From contig JAFYLH010000012.1 in the NCBI GenBank assembly GCA_017537175.1, forward strand, positions 65,375-129,374: a stretch of 64,000 nt of DNA, read 5' to 3'. Below the pieces are notes generated by a model. The model ran no database searches, was not told where the DNA came from, and saw only the letters and a program-made list of their open reading frames with translations. The position numbers were made by a program, and so were the translations under genes. The stretch comes from Clostridia bacterium. GTDB taxonomy: Bacteria > Bacillota > Clostridia > Oscillospirales > CAG-272. This document shows positions 590-62,181 of this stretch, in pieces; the first letter of the stretch is position 1, and the number at the start of each line of letters is the position of its first letter.

Positions 590-3500
590 ATGGCAATGAC
601 AAAAAGAGTGATATCATTATTGATGACCGTGGTAATGCTGATAGGAGTATCAGCCTTCGCCCTTCCTGTCAATGCCGCCGAGAGCTGCACGATTATATTT
701 GATGCCAACGGCGGTACAGGTGTGGGAATGCCCGAAAATATTACGGTAGATGCGGGAACTATAATCACACTTCCTGCAAGCTCACCCACAAAACCGGGAA
801 TGGTTTTTAGAGGTTGGGCATTCAGCAAAGAGGATGCCGACAACGGTGTTATTACCTATGCGGCAGGCACAACTCCTCAGATCCACGTAAACAACGGAGC
901 AATACTTTATGCTTCCTATGCATATTCGGTAGTTCTCAACCACGGTAACCGCGGCTGGGGTAATGCCGCAGTTCAGCTCTATAAATTCCCGGGTAAGGAC
1001 CTTGAGCTCTATCACAAAAAGGACCTGATCCAGCAGAATTACGGAATGCTCCCCGGTGCTTCGGGAGAGACCACCAACCTTATGGTATTTATGGAGTGGA
1101 ACACCTCTCAGGCATTTAACGGTTTAGGTGACGGCATAGGCTATCACGAAAGATATACCACCAATGCATCGACTACTCTTTATTGCATCTGGGGTAATCC
1201 TGTTGCCTACAACGCCAACGGCGGTACATTCCCCGCAACAGGCACAGACCGCCAGTCAAAGTACGTTGTAAACTGGAGTATAAACCGTCACGATGATACC
1301 ACCTTCGGTCTGTTTGATTTTCCGGATGAAGAAAACTCACCCGTAAAGGACGGCTGCCGTCTCTATACCAACGAAGCGGGCGAGACCGTTTATGCAAGAG
1401 TATTCTTGAACGGCAATATATACCGCTATGAGTCGGATGACAGCTGGCTTGATATGCCTATATTCAACGGCCCCGGCTATAAGTGGGAGGATTTTTATAC
1501 CTATATTCTGCCCATAGACGAAAGAGCGCTTGAGCTTTATGCAATTTGGGAGCCCTCTGTTACATACAAGGCTAACGGCGGCAAGGGTGCTGACATAGTT
1601 GAGTATATGGAGCATATAGGCCCTACACTTTTCAGCTATGCAGATTATACCGTACGTAACAATTCTTTTGTAAACGACGGACGTTTTCTCGGCTGGAATA
1701 CCAAGCCTGACGGCAGCGGCGAGAGCTACGAGGCAGGTCAGGTGATCACAGACTATGACACAAGCGAGCCTATAATTCTTTATGCTCAGTGGTCTGATGG
1801 CTGTGAAGCAAAGGAATATACCGTAACCTTTAATGCAATGGAGGGTTATCTCCCCTTTGAAGCGCAGAGCTTTGAAATAGCTTACGGCGAGAGCTTCAAG
1901 GATGCCTTTGAGCTTCCCATACCCACAAGATCGGGGTATCTCTTTAAGGGTTGGTATAACGAAGAAACAGAGTCTTATCTTAATTATGCAGATGAAATCT
2001 ACTCATTAGACCGTGACAGCGTTTATACAGCAGAGTGGGTGCGTCATGATAATCACTATATCGAGGACTTCAAAGTAGAGTCCACCTGTATGACCGAGGG
2101 CAGCTACACCTCTTACTGTACTACCTGTGATTATTACAATACCATTACTTACGGCAAGGTAGAACATACCTTCACCGACTGGAATTATGTAGGCGATACA
2201 AATCTTGTTGTAAGAAGCTGTACACTTTGCGGTGCAAGTGAAAATGACGAGATCCCTCCGTCGGTACAGCAGCAGGTAATTGCTTACTGTAACAAGAATG
2301 TAGCATACAAGGATGTGGATTTCCCCTATATCGATGTTCTCAATTACCTCGGCCCCGCAATCGACGGTGGTCCCGGTGAATATCCCTTCCAGGAGTCCTA
2401 CTTTGGTGAGGCTGCCTATATGAGAAAGGTAGCAACTGCAAAGAACCCCAATATCAAAATAGTTTGTACAGTCTTTAACAGAAACATAGTTAAGTTTGAA
2501 AATTGGCTGAGAACTCCCGCATCCCGTGCCGAGTTTGCAAACCACCTGACAGGCGTTGTATTTGCAAATAACTTTGACGGTCTTGATATCGACTTTGAGT
2601 TCCCGTCGGATCTGTCTCTGCGTGACGAATATGCACTTCTCTTGGGTGAGATCAGAGCAAGATTCAATGCAAAGACCGCACAGACAGGCAGACAGTATAT
2701 ACTGAGTATCGCTACTCCCGCAGCCCATTGGGCAACAGAAAAATTTGACCTTGTTGCCTGCGCTCAGTATCTTGACTACTTTAACATAATGAACTACGAC
2801 CTCTATTGCGGCTCGGCGGTTCCTTATACACATCACCATACACCTCCCTTTGACAATATCGACCCCTACGGACACGTTCCCACAGGCGGCTCTGTTCAGG
2901 GTGATATCAATATGTACAAGGCTCTTGGTATCCCCGGAGAAAAGATAGTTTCGGGTATGGGTCTTTATTCAAGAGAGTGGCAGGGCGTTCCCAACCGTAA
3001 CAACGGTCTCTTCCAGCCCGCAGCACTCCAGGCAAGTAACTATCACTATGACCTGCTTTTGGCATCCTTTGTTAACCGTAACGGCTATGTCCGTTACTGG
3101 GACGATACCTCAAAGGCACCTTATCTCTTTAACGCAGGAGCAGGTATATTCCTCTCCTACGAGGACCCCGAATCCATTAACTATAAGTGTCAGATAGTTT
3201 CAAAGGAAAGAGTCCGCGGTGTTATGGTATTTGACTACGTAACCTGCGACGGTACCGGAATATTTGCACATATAAGAAATCAGCTGGGCTCTGTGCTTCA
3301 CGCCTGCACACCCGGCAGAACCGAGACAAAGGCGGCAAGCTGCAGTGAAAACGGCTATACCAAGACCTACTGCTATTTCTGTGAAGCCCTTATCAAGCAT
3401 ACCGAGGTATACCACGAGGGTCATTATGCCACCGACTGGACTGTAGTTACCCCCGCAACAAAGGGTAGCGCCGGTATAGAAGAGGCAATATGCCTTAACT

Positions 3501-5017
3501 GTAACGAAAGCTTCACAAGAGAGATTCCCGCATTGGGCTATAAGATAAGCTTTGATGCAGGTGAGGGCAAAAAGCTCGGCTCCACCGCATTTATAATTCA
3601 AAAGGGTCAGAACTATGCAGAGATTGTAGGCGAGGATCCTCAGGCGATTCTCGAAGACACAAGCCTTGTTGGTTGGTATGCTGACGGCTATATGCTTAAT
3701 ACCGCAGACAGCTTTGACTTTGATGATGATGTAACCTTTACAGCAGTATGGGAAGAAGAGGGCGAGCACACCCACAGATATACCTCAAAGGTAACAAAGG
3801 AAGCAAGCTGTACCGCAGACGGTGTTATCACCTACACCTGCCGCTGCGGAGACAGCTATACAGAGATGATCCCCCAGCTCGGTCACGAATATGTTGGCTG
3901 TGAGACCCTTGCTCCCACCTGCGGTGCAGAGGGCGAATATACCTATACCTGTACCAACTGCGGGGAGGGCTACACCGAAAGTATTGCTAAGCTTGATCAC
4001 AGCTTTGACACAGGAACTACCACTACAATGCCTGCATGTACCACTGAGGGTACAAAGACCTATACCTGTACGGTATGCGGTGAAACCAAGACTGAATCTA
4101 TCGCGGCTCTCGGTCATGTATGGAGAGCCTGGGAGGTAGTAAAGGAAGCAACCGAGACTGAGGACGGCTTACAGCAAAGAATCTGCCGTCGCGGCTGTGG
4201 TACGGTTGAAGAAGAGATCATCCCCGCACTCGGCGGTGGAGAGGTAACCGAGGTTACAGTATCCTCCGACGGTCCTAACCTTACTATCAGCGGTATGGTT
4301 GATGTAAAGGATGTATTTATCGCTCTTGGTGATTACAATACCTACGCAGATGTTAAGGCAAACGCAGTAGTTCGTCTTACTCCCGATAAGCTTGCGGGAG
4401 CAGAGTCCTATACATACACACTCAAGGCAGGCGGTTACTACACCGTTCTTGTAAGATACAATGACGGCACAAGCGTATATCTGTATGAACAGATAGATGT
4501 TACCGAGCCCGGTTTCTCTGCAGACGGCTTACAGCTTACAGTATCTAACCTTGATAATGTAAAGGTTATCAGAACCGCATACGGTGAATACACCACAGTA
4601 TCTCAGATCAAGAAGGCAGAGGGCGCAAGAGCCTTCACCGCAAAGAACGACATCAAGGGTGCTGATTCCTATAAGATCCAGTACAGATACAACGGTAAGG
4701 TAACAGTAGCAGTACAGTACAATGACGGCTACACCAAGATCTACACCTATACCGTAGAGCAGAAGGTTCCCGTATTTACACAGTCTAACAATGTAGTTAC
4801 CATCGGCAATATCGACGATCTCTACATCGTAAGATATGCTCCCGGCGAGTGGAAGACATCATCCGAGATCAAGAAGGCAGCAGGCTCTGTAGCTATCAAA
4901 GCTTCTGCAGCAGTTGACGGTGTGATCACCGTAAAGAACCTCAAGTCGGGTACTTACACATTCTGTGTTCAGTATAACGATGAGTCTTATAATTATTACG
5001 TAATTACCGTAGAATAA
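590..5017 (+). CDS. Secreted multidomain glycoside hydrolase family 18 (chitinase-like) protein, 1475 aa, with Listeria-Bacteroides-type repeats, Cys-rich modules and three C-terminal tandem repeats
   Basis: N-terminal signal peptide (LMTVVMLIGVSAFALPVNA); repeats ending in F(R/L/K)GW; GH18 catalytic signature DGLDIDFE at nt 2576-2599; AGGAGG RBS. The start could instead be ATG 596. Confidence 0.8.
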   Translation: MAMTKRVISLLMTVVMLIGVSAFALPVNAAESCTIIFDANGGTGVGMPENITVDAGTIITLPASSPTKPGMVFRGWAFSKEDADNGVITYAAGTTPQIHVNNGAILYASYAYSVVLNHGNRGWGNAAVQLYKFPGKDLELYHKKDLIQQNYGMLPGASGETTNLMVFMEWNTSQAFNGLGDGIGYHERYTTNASTTLYCIWGNPVAYNANGGTFPATGTDRQSKYVVNWSINRHDDTTFGLFDFPDEENSPVKDGCRLYTNEAGETVYARVFLNGNIYRYESDDSWLDMPIFNGPGYKWEDFYTYILPIDERALELYAIWEPSVTYKANGGKGADIVEYMEHIGPTLFSYADYTVRNNSFVNDGRFLGWNTKPDGSGESYEAGQVITDYDTSEPIILYAQWSDGCEAKEYTVTFNAMEGYLPFEAQSFEIAYGESFKDAFELPIPTRSGYLFKGWYNEETESYLNYADEIYSLDRDSVYTAEWVRHDNHYIEDFKVESTCMTEGSYTSYCTTCDYYNTITYGKVEHTFTDWNYVGDTNLVVRSCTLCGASENDEIPPSVQQQVIAYCNKNVAYKDVDFPYIDVLNYLGPAIDGGPGEYPFQESYFGEAAYMRKVATAKNPNIKIVCTVFNRNIVKFENWLRTPASRAEFANHLTGVVFANNFDGLDIDFEFPSDLSLRDEYALLLGEIRARFNAKTAQTGRQYILSIATPAAHWATEKFDLVACAQYLDYFNIMNYDLYCGSAVPYTHHHTPPFDNIDPYGHVPTGGSVQGDINMYKALGIPGEKIVSGMGLYSREWQGVPNRNNGLFQPAALQASNYHYDLLLASFVNRNGYVRYWDDTSKAPYLFNAGAGIFLSYEDPESINYKCQIVSKERVRGVMVFDYVTCDGTGIFAHIRNQLGSVLHACTPGRTETKAASCSENGYTKTYCYFCEALIKHTEVYHEGHYATDWTVVTPATKGSAGIEEAICLNCNESFTREIPALGYKISFDAGEGKKLGSTAFIIQKGQNYAEIVGEDPQAILEDTSLVGWYADGYMLNTADSFDFDDDVTFTAVWEEEGEHTHRYTSKVTKEASCTADGVITYTCRCGDSYTEMIPQLGHEYVGCETLAPTCGAEGEYTYTCTNCGEGYTESIAKLDHSFDTGTTTTMPACTTEGTKTYTCTVCGETKTESIAALGHVWRAWEVVKEATETEDGLQQRICRRGCGTVEEEIIPALGGGEVTEVTVSSDGPNLTISGMVDVKDVFIALGDYNTYADVKANAVVRLTPDKLAGAESYTYTLKAGGYYTVLVRYNDGTSVYLYEQIDVTEPGFSADGLQLTVSNLDNVKVIRTAYGEYTTVSQIKKAEGARAFTAKNDIKGADSYKIQYRYNGKVTVAVQYNDGYTKIYTYTVEQKVPVFTQSNNVVTIGNIDDLYIVRYAPGEWKTSSEIKKAAGSVAIKASAAVDGVITVKNLKSGTYTFCVQYNDESYNYYVITVE

Positions 5018-5029
5018 TATAATGAAGAA

Positions 5030-5056
5030 AACAGCAGGGGTAACCCTGCTGTTTTC
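5030..5056 (+). terminator. Rho-independent terminator after the GH18 gene
   Basis: CAGCAGGG-GTAA-CCCTGCTG stem followed by TTTT. Confidence 0.7.
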
Positions 5057-5062
5057 AACCAT

Positions 5063-5163
5063 AATTCCGCACTCCGTGTTCCGACCGGAGGGAGTGCCAA
5101 GAGGCTTTGCCTCAGGCCGCATTCCGCATTCCTCTCATTTTCCGTTCATTATTTCCGCTTGAC
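5063..5163. repeat. Heptad-repeat mosaic element, partial copy C: TTCCGCA-type heptads flanking a 36-bp core (5081-5116)
   Basis: AATTCCGCACTCCGTGTT-[core]-CCGCATTCCGCATTCCTCTCATTTTCCG...; the core is 33/36 identical to the reverse complement of 60479-60514. Confidence 0.7.
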
Positions 5164-5187
5164 TTTTACTTTTAGCTTTGCTATAAT
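5159..5187 (+). promoter_or_regulatory. Sigma-A type promoter for coaX
   Basis: TTGACT (5159-5164), 17-nt spacer, TATAAT (5182-5187). Confidence 0.6.
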
Positions 5188-5216
5188 ATTTCCATTAATT
5201 TACGACGGAGGTAATT

Positions 5217-10129: not shown

Positions 10130-10831
10130 ATGGATAACAATCAGATCGAAGCCGAGGTTAACACCGATAAGGCAGTAAAAAAGGAAAAGCAGAAATTCAG
10201 CCTTTGCCGCTCCGTGTTTGAATGGGTAGAGCTTGTAGCCATTTCCATAACCGTGGTAATACTGATACTCAACTGCTTTGCAAGATATTCTCCCGTTGAC
10301 GGTCAATCTATGAACGAGACCCTGCAGCATCAGGATATACTGATACTGAGCGATTTGTTCTATACACCCAAAAACGGAGACATAGTGGTATTTGCTTCTC
10401 AGCAAACAAAATATGATACCCCTTATGTCAAGCGTGTAATTGCGGTTGCGGGTCAGACTGTTGACTATGATCCGGTAACAGGCAGAGTTACCGTTGACGG
10501 TAAGGTTCCCGAGTGGGAAAAATATGCGGTTCATAAGACCAACGATGTAATCACGGGAGAAACGGTATATTGGGAGTATAATACGGAGGACGATACCGTA
10601 ACCAAAAACGGTCAGCCCTGTGATATGGCAGAGTATGAAGAACAGAGAAACAAGGGCTATGATGTTGGTCAGGTGACATATCCCTATACCGTACCCAAGG
10701 GACATATATTTGTAATGGGTGATAACCGTTGGCACTCCAGCGACAGCCGCTTGATCGGAGCTGTTGATGTAAGAACGGTCCTTGGTAAAGTGGTGTTCAG
10801 ACTTTTCCCGAATACGGGAATTGTAGATTAA
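10130..10831 (+). CDS. lepB: Signal peptidase I (S26 family)
   Basis: N-terminal TM; catalytic Ser box GQSMNETL, Lys box VKRVIAVAG, GDNRWHSSDSR box. Confidence 0.9.
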   Translation: MDNNQIEAEVNTDKAVKKEKQKFSLCRSVFEWVELVAISITVVILILNCFARYSPVDGQSMNETLQHQDILILSDLFYTPKNGDIVVFASQQTKYDTPYVKRVIAVAGQTVDYDPVTGRVTVDGKVPEWEKYAVHKTNDVITGETVYWEYNTEDDTVTKNGQPCDMAEYEEQRNKGYDVGQVTYPYTVPKGHIFVMGDNRWHSSDSRLIGAVDVRTVLGKVVFRLFPNTGIVD

Positions 10832-10920
10832 TTAGGAGTTAGGAGTTAGGAGTTAATGAAGATTTTTGTTTCTTTATGAAACAAAAATCCACATTAATTT
10901 TGCATTTTGCATTTTGCATT
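10832..10920 (+). repeat. Heptad-repeat palindromic element, copy A: (TTAGGAG)x3 - TTAATGAAG - 12-bp hairpin - CACATTAA - (TTTTGCA)x3
   Basis: Read directly; heptads at 10832-10852 and 10898-10918, stem 10861-10872/10878-10889; same architecture as 60451-60589. Confidence 0.8.
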
Positions 10921-26931: not shown

Positions 26932-27378
26932 ATGAAAAAGATTTTTGCTATACTTATGGTAGTTGTAATGCTGTTTGCAATCGCAATTCCCGTATCTGCT
27001 GAGATCAGCCCTAAGCCCCAGCCCGATGTTGATATTTCTGTTGTTCCCGAAAAGGGCGGCGAGATCACCGAAAAGGACAACGGCGACGGTACTATCACCA
27101 TCACTGTTAAGCCCAACAGCGGCTATGACTTTGTTAAGTGGGAGCTCACAGGAGAGTACGAGATCGTTTCCGGTAAGCTTACCGACAAGACCATCACTAT
27201 CAAGCCCATTACCGATGTTAAGGCACAGGCTGTTATGAAGACACAGACCACAGTTAAGCCTACACCCGGTCCCGGCACATCTTCTCCTTCTACAGGTGTT
27301 GCACCTGCTATGATGGTAGTTGCTTTTGTTGGCTCTATGGCAGCTGCAGGCTACTCCTTCAAGAAGAGCAGCAAGTAA
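26932..27378 (+). CDS. Small cell-wall-anchored surface protein, 148 aa, with a C-terminal SPSTG sorting signal
   Basis: Signal peptide; SPSTG (nt 27283-27297), then hydrophobic VAPAMMVVAFVGSMAAAGY and a KKSSK tail; sits next to srtB. Confidence 0.75.
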   Translation: MKKIFAILMVVVMLFAIAIPVSAEISPKPQPDVDISVVPEKGGEITEKDNGDGTITITVKPNSGYDFVKWELTGEYEIVSGKLTDKTITIKPITDVKAQAVMKTQTTVKPTPGPGTSSPSTGVAPAMMVVAFVGSMAAAGYSFKKSSK

Positions 27379-27395
27379 TTAACAAGCATTTTAAG

Positions 27396-27421
27396 ACCTA
27401 CCTCTCACAGGGGTAGGTTTT
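27396..27421 (+). terminator. Hairpin terminator/attenuator between the substrate gene and srtB
   Basis: ACCTACC(T)-CTCACAG-(G)GGTAGGT followed by TTTTATCATTTTT. Confidence 0.6.
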
Positions 27422-27449
27422 ATCATTTTTGTCATATGACGAGGATATT

Positions 27450-30500: not shown

Positions 30501-30557
30501 GAAACCGCTTCGGCGGTTTTCTTCATTAATTCCGCACTCCGCACTCCGCATTCCGCA
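30501..30557 (-). repeat. Heptad-repeat element, half copy D: (GCGGART)x4 - TAATGAAG - terminator hairpin, read on the minus strand; supplies the ispF C-terminus, stop codon and terminator
   Basis: Plus strand: GAAACCGC-TTCG-GCGGTTTT CTTCATTAA (TTCCGCA/CTCCGCA)x4; heptads at 30530-30557. Confidence 0.75.
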
Positions 30558-31023
30558 CTATCAGTGCCACTGCGTGGGCACTGATCCCCTCCAGCCTTCC
30601 GGTAAAGCCAAGCTTTTCCTCGGTTGTGGCCTTGATGCTTACACGGGAGATATCAATGCCTAAGGCATCGGCTATGTTTTTTCTCATACCGTCGATATAA
30701 GGAGCTAATTTGGGCTTCTGTGCTATGACGGTTGCATCTATGTTTGAGACCTTGTAGTCTCCCAAAAGAGATACACAGTGCTTAAGCAATACTATACTGT
30801 CAGCGCCTTTGTATTTAGGGTCTGTGTCGGGAAAATGCTTTCCTATATCCCCAAGAGCCAATGCGCCCAGCAGGGCATCGCTTACCGCGTGGCAAAGCAC
30901 ATCTGCATCGCTGTGACCTAAAAGACCCATTTCGTATTCTATTTCTGTTCCGCCTAAAATAAGCTTTCTGTTTTCGGCAAAGCGGTGAACATCATATCCG
31001 TGGCCGATGCGTATATCCGTCAT
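30526..31023 (-). CDS. ispF: 2-C-methyl-D-erythritol 2,4-cyclodiphosphate synthase
   Basis: [10 protein letters not shown]...[11 protein letters not shown]...conserved IspF; the last 9 residues RNAECGVRN are encoded by the heptad repeat. Confidence 0.95.
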
Positions 31024-52975: not shown

Positions 52976-53012
52976 TTATAGTATAATATATTGAATACAC
53001 TTTGTGTATTCA

Positions 53013-53181
53013 GCTAAATTCGCTATGCGAGCTAAATGTGCAGAGCACGCTAAATTACTTCGTAGCTAAATTGACCTTCGGTCAGCTGATATGCGAATTT
53101 AATTTAGCTGTTTCACAGAAACAATTTAGCTATCACGCAAAGCGGGATAATTTAGCTTTGCACGTAAGGGCAAAATTTAGC
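53013..53181. repeat. Array of eight octamers: four GCTAAAT(T/G) (53013, 53031, 53049, 53065) then four AATTTAGC (53101, 53123, 53149, 53174), with self-complementary spacers
   Basis: Read directly from the ybeY-era intergenic region; spacer hairpins include TGTTTC-ACA-GAAACA, TATC.CGC-AAA-GCG.GATA, TTTGC-N8-GCAAA and GACC-TTCG-GTC. Confidence 0.85.
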
Positions 53182-53221
53182 CCAACATAAGATTTTAAAG
53201 ATAATTGAGGACATATCGTTA

Positions 53222-60440: not shown

Positions 60441-60450
60441 TAAGATAAAA

Positions 60451-60589
60451 AGTTAGGAGTTAGGAGTGAGGAGTTAGGCCCGAGGCAAAGCCTCTTGGCA
60501 CTTCCTTCGGTCGGAGTTAATGAAGATTTTTGTTGCTTTGGGCAACAAAAATCCACCTTAATTCCGCATTCCGCATTCTGCACTCCGCA
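60451..60589 (+). repeat. Heptad-repeat palindromic element, copy B: (AGTTAGG-type)x4 - 36-bp core - AGTTAATGAAG - 12-bp hairpin - CACCTTAA - (TTCCGCA-type)x4
   Basis: Heptads 60451-60478 and 60562-60589; core 60479-60514; stem 60525-60536/60542-60553. Confidence 0.8.
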
Positions 60590-60621
60590 TTAAATAAATA
60601 ATAATTTGGAGGATTACATAA

Positions 60622-61878
60622 ATGATCAACAAGAGCTATGAATTAGCAAAAGAGATCTATGCGGCACAGGGTATTGATACCGATGCTGCGATCGCTAAGC
60701 TTAAGAACATTCCCGTTTCACTTCACTGCTGGCAGGGTGATGACGTTATCGGTTTTGACCACGACGGCCCCCTCAACGGCGGTATCCAGACCACAGGTAA
60801 CTACCCCGGCAAGGCAACCACTCCCGAGCAGCTTATGGCTGATATGGACAAGGTTCTCTCCCTTTGCCCCGGTACAAAGAAGATCAACGTTCACGCTTGC
60901 TACGCTATCTTTGAGGACGGTCAGTTTGTAGACAGAGACAAGCTTGAGCCCAAGCATTTCGCTAAGTGGGTAGAGTTTGCAAAGGCACACGGCTGCGGTC
61001 TCGACTTCAACCCCACCTTCTTCTCTCATCCTATGCAGAAGGACGGCCTTACACTTTCCAGCCCCGACGAAAACATCCGTAAGTTCTGGGTAGAGCACGG
61101 CAAGGCTTGTATCCGCATTTCCGAGTATTTTGCAAAGGAAACAGGTATGCCCTGTGTTATGAACATCTGGATCGGCGACGGCTTTAAGGATATTCCCGCT
61201 GACCGTATGGGCCCCAGAATGAGATATAAGCAGTCTATCGAGGAGATCCTCTCCGAGCCTTATGACTTCAACCTCGTTAAGCCCTGCGTTGAGTCCAAGG
61301 TATTCGGTATCGGTGTTGAGTCCTATACTGCAGGCTCTGCAGAGTTTGCTCTCTCCGTTGTAGCGGCTAACTCCGACAAGTGCATTCCCCTTATGGATAA
61401 CGGTCACTACCATCCCACCGAGGTTGTTTCCGACAAGATCCCCGCACTTCTTTGCTTCTTCCCCGAGATCGCACTTCACATTACAAGAGGTGTTCGTTGG
61501 GACTCCGACCATGTTGTTCTCTTTGACGACGAGACCAAGGAAATGGCAAAGGAGATCGTTCGTTGCGATGCTCTTGACCGTGCTTACATGGCACTTGACT
61601 ACTTTGATGCTTCCATCAACCGTATCTCCGCTTGGACCACAGGCTTCAGAAGCTGGCAGAAGGCTCTTCTTGCGGCTATGTGTACTCCCAACGCAGCTCT
61701 CAAGGAGCTTCAGGATCAGGGTAACTTCACCAAGCTTATGGTTATGCAGGAAGAGGCTAAGATGCTTCCCTTCGGCGCAGTATGGGCTAAGTATTGCGAG
61801 GAGTGCGGCGTAGCAGGCGACGCTTCTTGGTTTGACGAAGTAGAGAAGTACGAAGCAGAGGTACTCAGCAAGAGATAA
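60622..61878 (+). CDS. rhaA: L-rhamnose isomerase
   Basis: IPVSLHCWQGDDV... and overall conserved RhaA sequence, 418 aa; GGAGG RBS. Confidence 0.95.
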   Translation: MINKSYELAKEIYAAQGIDTDAAIAKLKNIPVSLHCWQGDDVIGFDHDGPLNGGIQTTGNYPGKATTPEQLMADMDKVLSLCPGTKKINVHACYAIFEDGQFVDRDKLEPKHFAKWVEFAKAHGCGLDFNPTFFSHPMQKDGLTLSSPDENIRKFWVEHGKACIRISEYFAKETGMPCVMNIWIGDGFKDIPADRMGPRMRYKQSIEEILSEPYDFNLVKPCVESKVFGIGVESYTAGSAEFALSVVAANSDKCIPLMDNGHYHPTEVVSDKIPALLCFFPEIALHITRGVRWDSDHVVLFDDETKEMAKEIVRCDALDRAYMALDYFDASINRISAWTTGFRSWQKALLAAMCTPNAALKELQDQGNFTKLMVMQEEAKMLPFGAVWAKYCEECGVAGDASWFDEVEKYEAEVLSKR

Positions 61879-62130
61879 TCGACTTTTTGTCGATTATCTC
61901 AATGAAATGAATCCTTGCGGATTCGTGAAATGCCGAGCAGACTCACGCCCGCAGTGCGGGATGAAGTGAGGCTGGGAGGACGGCAGACACCCAATGAGTT
62001 CAAGCGACTTTAGGAGCGAAGAAGGAATTGCTGGTGTCAACGAGTGACCTTGCGGTCATGAAATGACGGCTTTGCCGTCGTGAAATGCAACTTCGTTGCA
62101 TTAAGGAAACCTTTTGCCCGAGGGCAAAAG
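61877..62130 (+). repeat. Array of six short tetraloop-type hairpins joined by four TGAAATG linkers, split by a 110-nt central segment
   Basis: Hairpins 61877-61895, 61909-61924, 62045-62058, 62065-62079, 62085-62101, 62111-62130; TGAAATG at 61903, 61926, 62059, 62081. Confidence 0.75.
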
Positions 62131-62181
62131 CTAATTCCATTATATCATTTTAATTAAACAAAAAAGAAGGTTATACTTATC

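Follow-up and report, generated by a model that had tools for sequence, protein, structure and literature searches.

The subject of the present analysis is a chain of short hairpins joined by the heptamer TGAAATG, which lies between rhaA and the gene of a SIS-domain protein in a 64,000-nucleotide (nt) stretch of the Clostridia bacterium contig JAFYLH010000012.1 (the window). The closest described system is Gut-1 (Rfam RF01706), which Weinberg et al. described in 2010 from human-gut metagenomes only, with no function given, and which they graded as certainly an RNA and probably not cis-regulatory (PMC2864571). Their description has three hairpins on one strand and mentions neither a mirrored half, nor a built-in terminator, nor adjacency to tRNA genes (PMC2864571). 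Rfam gives the type of Gut-1 as 'Gene; sRNA' (small RNA), our literature search found no later papers on it, and it has been an orphan motif since 2010, previously from metagenomes only. The consensus runs CAaUGAAAU, a hairpin with a CCUUGCGG loop, GUGAAAU, hairpin, GUGAAAU, hairpin, UGAAAU. We argue below, with about even confidence in the two parts taken together, that the array in the rhaA–SIS spacer is a degenerate, lineage-specific composite variant of this Gut-1-type repeat, and that it may act as a passively transcribed chain of hairpins, tolerated only in its non-terminating orientation.

Several other kinds of element resemble the array in part. The REP units of Enterobacteria all follow a single ~35-nt consensus palindrome that has a GTAG end, and they are linked to RAYT transposases. 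Like the present arrays, REP and BIME are dispersed extragenic clusters of palindromes, often of alternating orientation and with short conserved linkers, found at gene 3' ends or between cistrons; they are transcribed, able to stabilise upstream mRNA and variable between close relatives. The present arrays differ in their taxa and in being built of several different hairpins of 11–19 nt joined by an identical heptamer, and a search of the neighbourhoods of 120 listed arrays (see below) found no RAYT (TnpA-REP) gene among their neighbours. Ordinary stabilisers, intercistronic or in a 3' untranslated region (UTR), are single hairpins specific to one locus; they share with the target stable hairpins without a U-tract between co-transcribed genes and intact downstream translation signals, whereas the target belongs to a multi-copy family with conserved linkers. 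In sponge RNAs such as CsrB and RsmZ a short motif is likewise repeated between or on many hairpins, but these have their own promoter and terminator, with GGA motifs mostly in loops, and Gut-1-type arrays have no promoter of their own. The DNA mini-hairpins d(GCGNAGC) and d(GCGNNAGC) have short stems and the C-G-closed GNA or GNNA loops that our arrays carry on their ATTTCAC strand; they differ in being single hairpins at phage or plasmid replication or transcription starts (PMC13037366, PMC3201870), while here the hairpins are chromosomal, stand in arrays of four to eight and lack a replicon context, and the GNA strand of the target is not the one that corresponds to the mRNA. The target does not combine the terminal inverted repeats and target-site duplication of a MITE, nor does it have the identical repeats of at least 25 nt with a cas or toxin gene that mark a CRISPR or type III toxin–antitoxin array: the repeated part is only a heptamer, the units differ, and the neighbours are RhaA and the SIS protein. 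There is no intrinsic terminator on its + strand, the flagged sites being on the − strand only.

The rhaA–SIS spacer occupies 61879–62181 (303 nt) and both flanking genes are on the + strand. Its parts are as follows.

61877–61895, + strand: 5' hairpin AATCGAC-TTTTT-GTCGATT, overlapping the rhaA stop codon TAA (61876–61878); ATCT comes next, with no U-tract
61900–61909, + strand: CAATGAAATG, comprising the 5' motif of array A and its first linker; fits the Gut-1 consensus CAaUGAAAU
61909–61924, + strand: GAATCC-TTGC-GGATTC, opening hairpin of array A; its CCUUGCGG loop is the usual one of the first hairpin in Gut-1
61925–61932, + strand: GTGAAATG, second linker of array A
61932–61984, + strand: compound domain as folded, with outer helix GCCG/CGGC
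61938–61946 and 61966–61974, + strand: helix CAGACTCAC/GTGAGGCTG of the minimum-free-energy (MFE) fold, with one A.G mismatch
61948–61960, + strand: a seventh hairpin, CCCGC-AGT-GCGGG, inside the compound domain
61961–61967, + strand: ATGAAGT, a centre or alternative-linker motif of the Gut-1 family
61986–62038, + strand: 53-nt domain closed in the fold by GACACC/GGTGTC, with TTAGGAG and GGAATT in its 41-nt interior
62038–62111, + strand: array B, the better of the two Gut-1 matches
62045–62058, + strand: array B hairpin TGACC-TTGC-GGTCA
62065–62079, + strand: array B hairpin GACGGC-TTT-GCCGTC
62084–62102, + strand: array B hairpin (A)ATGCAAC-TTC-GTTGCAT(T)
62111–62130, + strand: 3' hairpin CTTTTGCC-CGAG-GGCAAAAG, with no + strand U-tract, resembling the family hairpin CATTTTGCC..GGCAAAAT
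62131–62181, + strand: AT-rich tail with the SIS ribosome-binding site AAGAAGG (62164–62170), given as context and lying outside the repeat

The identification with Gut-1 came solely from Rfam in E-value mode, where two matches to Gut-1 are the only ones of note; at gathering thresholds no family reaches its gathering score anywhere in the window. The RF01706 model, for which that score is 50 bits, matches 62038–62111 over its full length (positions 1–77) with 39.5 bits, at E = 3.6e-6 in a 701-nt search and 3.2e-4 in a search of the whole window, and matches 61900–61972 with 26.1 bits. The plan of the target is that of Gut-1: a 5' CAAUGAAAU and a first hairpin with the CCUUGCGG loop are found at 61900–61924, a second CCUUGCGG-loop hairpin at 62045–62058, hairpin units joined by GUGAAAU follow, and the habitat, gut Clostridia, agrees. 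Nucleotides 21–54 of the target, that is, the first hairpin with both its linkers, are 91–94% identical (E down to 1e-7) to units at four loci, L240 (four copies), L220, L163 and L232, whose arrays score 58–80 bits for Gut-1. Array A opens with CAATGAAAT (5' motif plus linker), followed by the first hairpin, GTGAAATG and the compound hairpin ending in ATGAAGT; it thus has two linkers and one canonical hairpin. Array B reads CAACGAG (a degenerate first linker), TGACC-TTGC-GGTCA, TGAAATG, GACGGC-TTT-GCCGTC, GTGAAATG (62080), GCAAC-TTC-GTTGC, ATTAAGGAAAC; it has three hairpins and only two intact linkers, its flanking linkers having degenerated to CAACGAG and AUUAAGG. The target differs from Gut-1 proper in its scores, in having only two intact linkers in each half, in the 53-nt foreign domain and compound hairpin interposed, and in its place inside an operon instead of 3' of a terminator or tRNA.

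Our preferred reading of the target is a tandem pair of sense-only arrays, A and B, separated by an unrelated 53-nt domain. Its 5' hairpin, ATTAAGG motif and 3' hairpin fit the sense-only Gut-1 subfamily, the ATTAAGG end of array B corresponding to the GTTAAGG end of that subfamily. The listed arrays of the family have a hairpin, often a terminator, immediately 5' of the first linker, and the 5' hairpin of the target holds that position. The 53-nt domain has no homolog among the loci fetched, and its core is without an exact match in the JGI metagenomes. We speak of a degenerate composite variant, not of a family member, because neither half reaches the gathering score.

That the array is not a product of chance is clear from shuffled sequences. 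Seven hairpins of at least 5 Watson–Crick pairs are present in the spacer against 1.06 ± 0.96 in 1000 dinucleotide shuffles, none of which reached seven, and TGAAATG occurs four times on the + strand (61903, 61926, 62059 and 62081) against 0.08 in spacer shuffles. The heptamer is not enriched over the whole window (12 against 9.5 expected), and four copies on one strand in 185 nt have P ~ 4e-9. The MFE fold of the + strand (z = −4.06) consists of independent hairpins with unpaired linkers and includes both central helices. A preliminary description of the locus from its letters had listed six hairpins, the four linkers and the helices CAGACTCAC/GTGAGGCTG and GACACC/GGTGTC, and all of them are found where it placed them. 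Its term 'tetraloop' suits three of the six loops (TTGC twice and CGAG), the others being TTT, TTC and TTTTT. It had also proposed a scan against Rfam, which identified the array as Gut-1-like, and a search for further instances, which are present in large numbers in other genomes. The linker-plus-hairpin pattern that it noticed is exactly the Gut-1 consensus plan, so that the target is not a new class but of a kind already described in 2010.

The comparison with relatives that was likewise proposed shows that the array is not conserved at this locus. Contigs encoding identical SIS and RhaA proteins also have an identical spacer, so that no covariation could be obtained from them. In five relatives with SIS proteins 95, 89, 83, 83 and 74% identical, the rhaB-rhaA-SIS order is kept and the rhaA–SIS spacers measure 108, 84, 53, 34 and 30 nt, respectively, without TGAAATG in any of the five. 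The closest relative, L003, shows homology only at the 3' end of the spacer, where its GCTTAATTGAAAC TTTTTGC aligns with GCATTAAGGAAAC CTTTTGC of the window; the 3' part of the AT-rich tail, including the SIS ribosome-binding site, is common to the relatives. Accordingly, ~195 nt including all four linkers were gained in the window lineage or lost in L003. Being absent from the relatives' spacers, the array cannot be a conserved regulator of rhaA or SIS, and nothing suggests specific regulation of the rhamnose genes. Two further spacers of the syntenic block are expanded, that of ybeY and era (246 nt in the window, 48 and 59 nt in relatives) and that of rhaB and rhaA (181 nt, roughly 30–55 nt in relatives). 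Neither the relatives' contigs nor the rest of the window gave another TGAAAT-type array to a detector that required at least three linkers separated by hairpin-forming spacers; by the refutation criteria of the preliminary description itself, this want of a second copy in the window and the want of conservation at the locus count against its interpretation. Two short open reading frames on the − strand (61894–62040 and 62000–62140) overlie the palindrome-rich region that the relatives lack.

The family to which the target is related was collected by scanning one genome per species (GTDB) with the pattern TGAAAT-N3-8-CCTTGCGG-N3-8-GTGAAAT. This gave at least 120 loci, where our own estimate from information content predicts ~10 chance matches; all family counts given here refer to the matches listed. 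Rfam was run on 22 loci, every one of which reaches the gathering score of Gut-1 (50–80 bits). Nearly all matches listed are from metagenome-assembled genomes (MAGs) of gut and rumen Clostridia (Oscillospiraceae, Acutalibacteraceae, Christensenellaceae, Ruminococcaceae and unclassified 'Clostridia bacterium' bins), with one cultured strain among them, Hominenteromicrobium mulieris CLA-AA-H250 (Oscillospiraceae). In that strain (L148, 4362–4822) a mirrored Gut-1 array of 51 bits stands directly behind the tmRNA gene with its terminator and extends as far as a consensus TTGACA-17-TATAAT promoter; this occurrence makes the function of Gut-1 open to experiment. A few of the listed arrays are in other bins, namely L137 and L164 (Akkermansia MAGs), L187 (Bacteroidales), L162 (Anaeroplasmataceae) and L203 (Phascolarctobacterium), which could be binning contamination or horizontal transfer. 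In L137 an array with CGAGATT linkers adjoins the GTGAAAT array.

Two forms can be distinguished. The composite form has a bidirectional terminator, then some four repeats of a unit made of (G)TGAAAT and a short hairpin closed by C-G, and finally a mirrored half of hairpin-plus-ATTTCA(C) units; 65 of 117 listed arrays lie downstream of a terminator in this way, and the ends are inverted, TTTTTCAATGAAAT...ATTTCATTGAAAAA, whereas the target has no inverted end. The sense-only form consists of a 5' hairpin, units, GTTAAGG and a 3' hairpin, and typically comes right behind the stop codon of a same-strand gene (19–70 nt past that of the upstream + strand gene in about a dozen cases). Among the 120 listed, 63 are mirrored, a sense half being followed by hairpin-ATTTCA(C) units, and 33 are sense-only; 90 have four sense linkers and 64 have CAA or CAG 5' of the first. 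Rfam finds the mirrored half as an opposite-strand Gut-1, the two halves being convergent (L179 and L232). ATGAAG follows the last sense hairpin in family arrays and serves as a linker in L139. Folds show an alternative long helix closing the sense half. In L181 (3867–4200) and L146 the linkers are mixed: one half has both GTGAAAT and GTGATAT, and the other has GATTTACC, which is complementary to GGTAAATC, so the linkers of the two halves need not be complementary. A ladder of four-way junctions held by linker–linker pairing was considered and set aside, being weakened by these non-complementary linkers and by the existence of sense-only arrays. A likeness of GTGAAAT/ATTTCAC to ParB-type half-sites (box A of P1 parS, chromosomal parS) is retained as no more than a lead: the literature searched gave it no support, and other arrays use other heptamers.

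The surroundings of the arrays are equally characteristic. A tRNA gene lies within 80 nt of 41 of the 120 listed arrays and faces the array with its 3' end in 40 of the 41; these tRNAs span 13 isotypes, and tmRNA is also a neighbour; in other cases an rRNA operon ends upstream of the array. The same 45-nt bidirectional terminator, GAAAAGAACCCACATTTGTCTACGACAAGTGTGGGTTCTTTTCAA, occurs after the CCA of tRNA-Ala, Gly, Leu, Ser, Pro and Gln in different genomes. It begins one base past the CCA and is always followed by a Gut-1 array (L160, L174, L177, L182, L185, L208, L219, L230, L248, L253). Because an identical terminator precedes arrays across isotypes, we count it as part of the repeat, and terminator and array behave as one dispersed cassette at tRNA 3' ends. 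At L240 (4650–6400), after the end of a 23S-tRNA-5S-tRNA rRNA operon and a second tRNA, there are four complete mirrored elements in 1.75 kb. Several genomes yield 2–3 matches to the narrow scan pattern; the window's own genome, sampled as 64 kb, has one TGAAAT-type and one GCTAAAT-type array. The picture of a family widespread in gut and rumen Clostridia, with a mirrored partner, often a built-in terminator and often abutting stable-RNA genes, is new as far as the literature searched shows.

The only recurrent protein-coding neighbour is a 119-aa PF05635 gene (23S rRNA-intervening sequence protein, of a four-helix-bundle family), present at 11 of the 120 listed loci, which lies ~66 nt downstream of the array and reads away from it (L143, L157, L165, L172, L174, L179 and others). 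On viral contigs the triple-linker pattern gave mostly tandem repeats, and about six true arrays were left by a hairpin filter; since they are next to partial tRNAs, these probably belong to the host DNA that flanks prophages. L047 (9568–10167) and L091 (reverse, 3443–4042), a near-identical pair of contigs of viral or prophage origin, have the tRNA, the terminator and the sense half of the array in common, but the mirrored half is found only in L091 and unrelated DNA follows the third hairpin in L047. The centre of the array may therefore be a point of recombination or rearrangement. A typical element searched by BLAST gave one unannotated faecal phage contig in the phage collection and no match in the plasmid collection, and the exact first unit was not matched in a scan of metagenomes.

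Folding is conserved in the family. A hairpin of at least 4 Watson–Crick pairs is found in 65% of 405 distinct inter-linker spacers, against 5% when shuffled, and stems are kept across genomes (TCGTTCC/GGAACGA, AAATCC(C)/(G)GGATTT, CATTTTGCC/GGCAAAAT, TAATCC/GGATT and TATTGC/GCAAT). The four copies of L240 have almost identical stems and linkers and diverged flanks, and vary almost only at the N positions of the loops, at linker position 4 (A or T) and in one rearranged hairpin, which points to purifying selection on the folded units. The observation that all stems differ therefore holds inside the target array only, corresponding hairpins of the family keeping their stem sequences across genomes. 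Likewise the inverted logic of constant linkers and variable palindromes is true of a single array, but between copies it is the stems that are conserved and the free loop positions that vary.

How such an array might act in the rhamnose operon can be outlined only conditionally. The rhaA and SIS genes probably form one operon, as they are co-directional and 30–108 nt apart in relatives. The copy would then lie inside a rhaB-rhaA-SIS transcription unit and be co-transcribed with the operon mRNA, and the array RNA would fold into some nine stable hairpins, each independent of the others and joined to the next by a short, A-rich single-stranded linker. The array would bring no terminator to the mRNA strand and would leave the SIS ribosome-binding site untouched. 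Its effect would be passive: a structured intercistronic block that may hinder 3'-to-5' exonucleases and separate the two cistrons. A terminator scan found none on the + strand within 61877–62181, and no convincing promoter was found in the spacer. On the − strand, hairpins followed by ATTTCA were flagged as terminator-like at 61924-61909 and 62130-62111. The reverse orientation would be kept out of operons because a series of hairpin-AUUUCA(C) units resembles weak terminators and would cause polarity. In line with this, the upstream gene of sense-only arrays is on the + strand in 24 cases against 5, four of the 5 being cut by the end of the locus, and between co-directional genes the arrays are (+,+) in 9 cases and (−,−) in none, the target itself being (+,+).

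Several points weigh against this passive reading of a Gut-1 variant. Both Gut-1 matches of the target are below the gathering score, and each RNA-level step above is inferred from the DNA. In composite arrays beyond a terminator (65 of the 117), the array would be present in read-through RNA only. The conserved heptamer linker is not explained by a passive role, and the orientation bias could come partly from the replication strand rather than from transcription. It is the strand opposite the mRNA that carries the structure-favouring loops, GNA and GNNA with C-G closing pairs. Finally, reading the stems on the + strand gives 1758 Watson–Crick pairs, 16 G.U and 19 A.C; at ~2%, the share of non-Watson–Crick pairs is unusually low for selection on RNA only. 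G.U against A.C was also tried as an indicator of the strand; the count of 24 against 11 in favour of the ATTTCAC strand is too small to decide, and is offset by a conserved T...G that flanks every hairpin on the GTGAAAT strand.

These last points lead to the alternative that survives best, which we consider a real possibility although not a probable one, namely that the arrays are palindromic repeats acting at the level of DNA, akin to REP/BIME or MITE elements. They would form mini-hairpins in single-stranded DNA or cruciforms, or serve as sites for a recombinase, a HUH enzyme or a nucleoid protein, and would spread selfishly or for topological reasons, any effect on RNA being incidental. 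Stems that are ~98% Watson–Crick speak for this, as does the C-G closing pair of 277 out of 306 hairpins. The loops are nearly all of 3 or 4 nt, on the GTGAAAT strand TNC or TNNC and on the ATTTCAC strand GNA (GAA 27, GCA 14, GTA 5 and GGA 3) or GNNA, including the non-GNRA loops GTCA and GATA. These ATTTCAC-strand loops match d(C-GNA-G) and d(GCGNNAGC), which are DNA mini-hairpins of extraordinary stability that occur at sites of single-strand priming and at promoters of phage N4 (PMC13037366, PMC3201870). The strand symmetry of the composite form and its place beyond terminators, the recurrence in different genomes of one terminator–array unit a single base past the CCA of tRNAs of at least six isotypes, the four copies of L240 in 1.75 kb, and the gain or loss of arrays at three spacers of one syntenic block among relatives with 95% identical SIS all favour this reading. 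Against it, no transposase, integrase or RAYT-like gene recurs beside the 120 listed arrays, and no target-site duplication is visible where filled and empty rhaA–SIS and ybeY–era junctions are compared. Stems of 5–8 bp are also short for cruciform extrusion, and the orientation bias of the sense-only arrays would be unexpected unless linked to replication.

A wider proposal, which we put forward only tentatively, draws these observations together. On this proposal Gut-1 is not an sRNA but one half of an undescribed composite element, a bidirectional terminator plus mirrored, heptamer-linked mini-hairpins, inserted or copied precisely at the 3' ends of tRNA, tmRNA and rRNA-operon genes and in 3' UTRs of Oscillospiraceae and related gut Clostridia. 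It could be a new mobile element or a host-encoded, orientation-dependent insulator working through hairpins in single-stranded DNA or in read-through RNA, and the TGAAATG, GCTAAAT and heptad types would have multiplied recently in the genome of the window.

Taken alone, insulation of transcription seems to us unlikely as the function. Here hairpin-AUUUCA(C) units would be weak intrinsic terminators, several of which in series halt RNA polymerase, so that sense-only arrays block antisense transcription into the upstream gene and mirrored arrays block read-through both ways, for example after tRNA, tmRNA or rRNA genes, whose transcription is very strong. The two terminator-like sites flagged on the − strand of the target agree with this, as do the (+,+) bias of 9 to 0 and the 41 arrays near tRNAs, 40 of them faced by the tRNA 3' end, with others after tmRNA or an rRNA operon. 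Several other linkers (ATTTAGC, ATATCAC and ATCTCAC) also begin with A and then a U-rich run in antisense, and, as L148 illustrates, mirrored arrays often end at the −35 box of the promoter that follows. However, AUUUCAC with its three U residues is poor as a U-tract, most composite arrays are already flanked by canonical terminators, and the conserved CAC/GTG part of the linker is not explained. The mirrored ybeY–era array, lying between a conserved −10-like box and era, would moreover block the expression of era.

A trans-acting sRNA, the Rfam type of Gut-1, is quite improbable. One could imagine a sponge in which single-stranded UGAAAU titrates an RNA-binding protein, in the manner of CsrB/RsmZ and CsrA; identical single-stranded linkers among variable hairpins are the layout of a sponge, the linkers are unpaired in the fold, and Weinberg et al. 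rated the motif as certainly an RNA and probably not cis-regulatory (PMC2864571). What makes an independent sRNA or sponge unlikely is that a promoter would have no room, the first linker abutting a terminator U-tract or a stop codon. The target has neither promoter nor terminator of its own and is absent from close relatives, and a mirrored half and the near-absence of G.U pairs would not be expected of an sRNA. The 'sRNA' label and the strand assigned to Gut-1 in Rfam may be wrong. A cis-regulatory leader of the SIS gene (riboswitch or attenuator) sensing a rhamnose-pathway metabolite, which a highly structured region directly upstream of SIS in a sugar operon might suggest, is barely conceivable, being largely refuted by the orthologous spacers of 30–108 nt without the array, and homologous arrays stand beside unrelated genes and tRNAs and consist of independent hairpins with no conserved pocket-like core. 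For annotation, the target is a decaying repeat copy in a rhamnose operon, and entering it as a regulator or a new RNA class is unwarranted.

The upstream neighbour of the array is RhaA, of 418 aa (PF06134, E = 6e-175), and the downstream SIS-domain protein has 346 aa; both genes are located 3' of genes for an FGGY kinase and xylose-isomerase-like TIM-barrel proteins (AP_endonuc_2).

Other repeats are present in the window. The echo of the target that the preliminary description heard in the ybeY–era spacer is borne out, in that 52976–53221 has an equal plan with a different linker (GCTAAAT/ATTTAGC). That array is mirrored, with four hairpin-GCTAAAT units followed by four ATTTAGC-hairpin units, and has loops of CTNNG type in the first half and CNNAG type in the second. 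It is inserted directly after a conserved ATAGTATAATATAT box and is absent from the 48- and 59-nt spacers of relatives; the Rfam Gut-1 model did not detect it.

The heptad family consists of GTTAGGA-type tracts, a GAGGC-nnn-GCCTC hairpin and ATTCCGC-type tracts, and the two heptads can pair at 5 of 7 positions. The window holds at least four copies or fragments, namely:

60441–60621: heptad copy or fragment
5018–5216: heptad copy or fragment
10829–10899: heptad copy or fragment
30526–30559: heptad copy or fragment

A kinship between these heptads and the TGAAATG linker had been suggested, and two observations lend it weak support: ATGAAG(T/G) is the usual centre or an alternative linker in family arrays, and period-7 tracts show ~6-fold enrichment at distances of up to 300 nt from Gut-1 arrays of other genomes, the counts being small (7 against 13). 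Elsewhere in the window, a gene end at 27322–27424 gives a weak sub-threshold match to the Rfam family HrrF (30.9 bits and E = 0.2, where the gathering score is 77), which is probably a chance match to a terminator-like hairpin.

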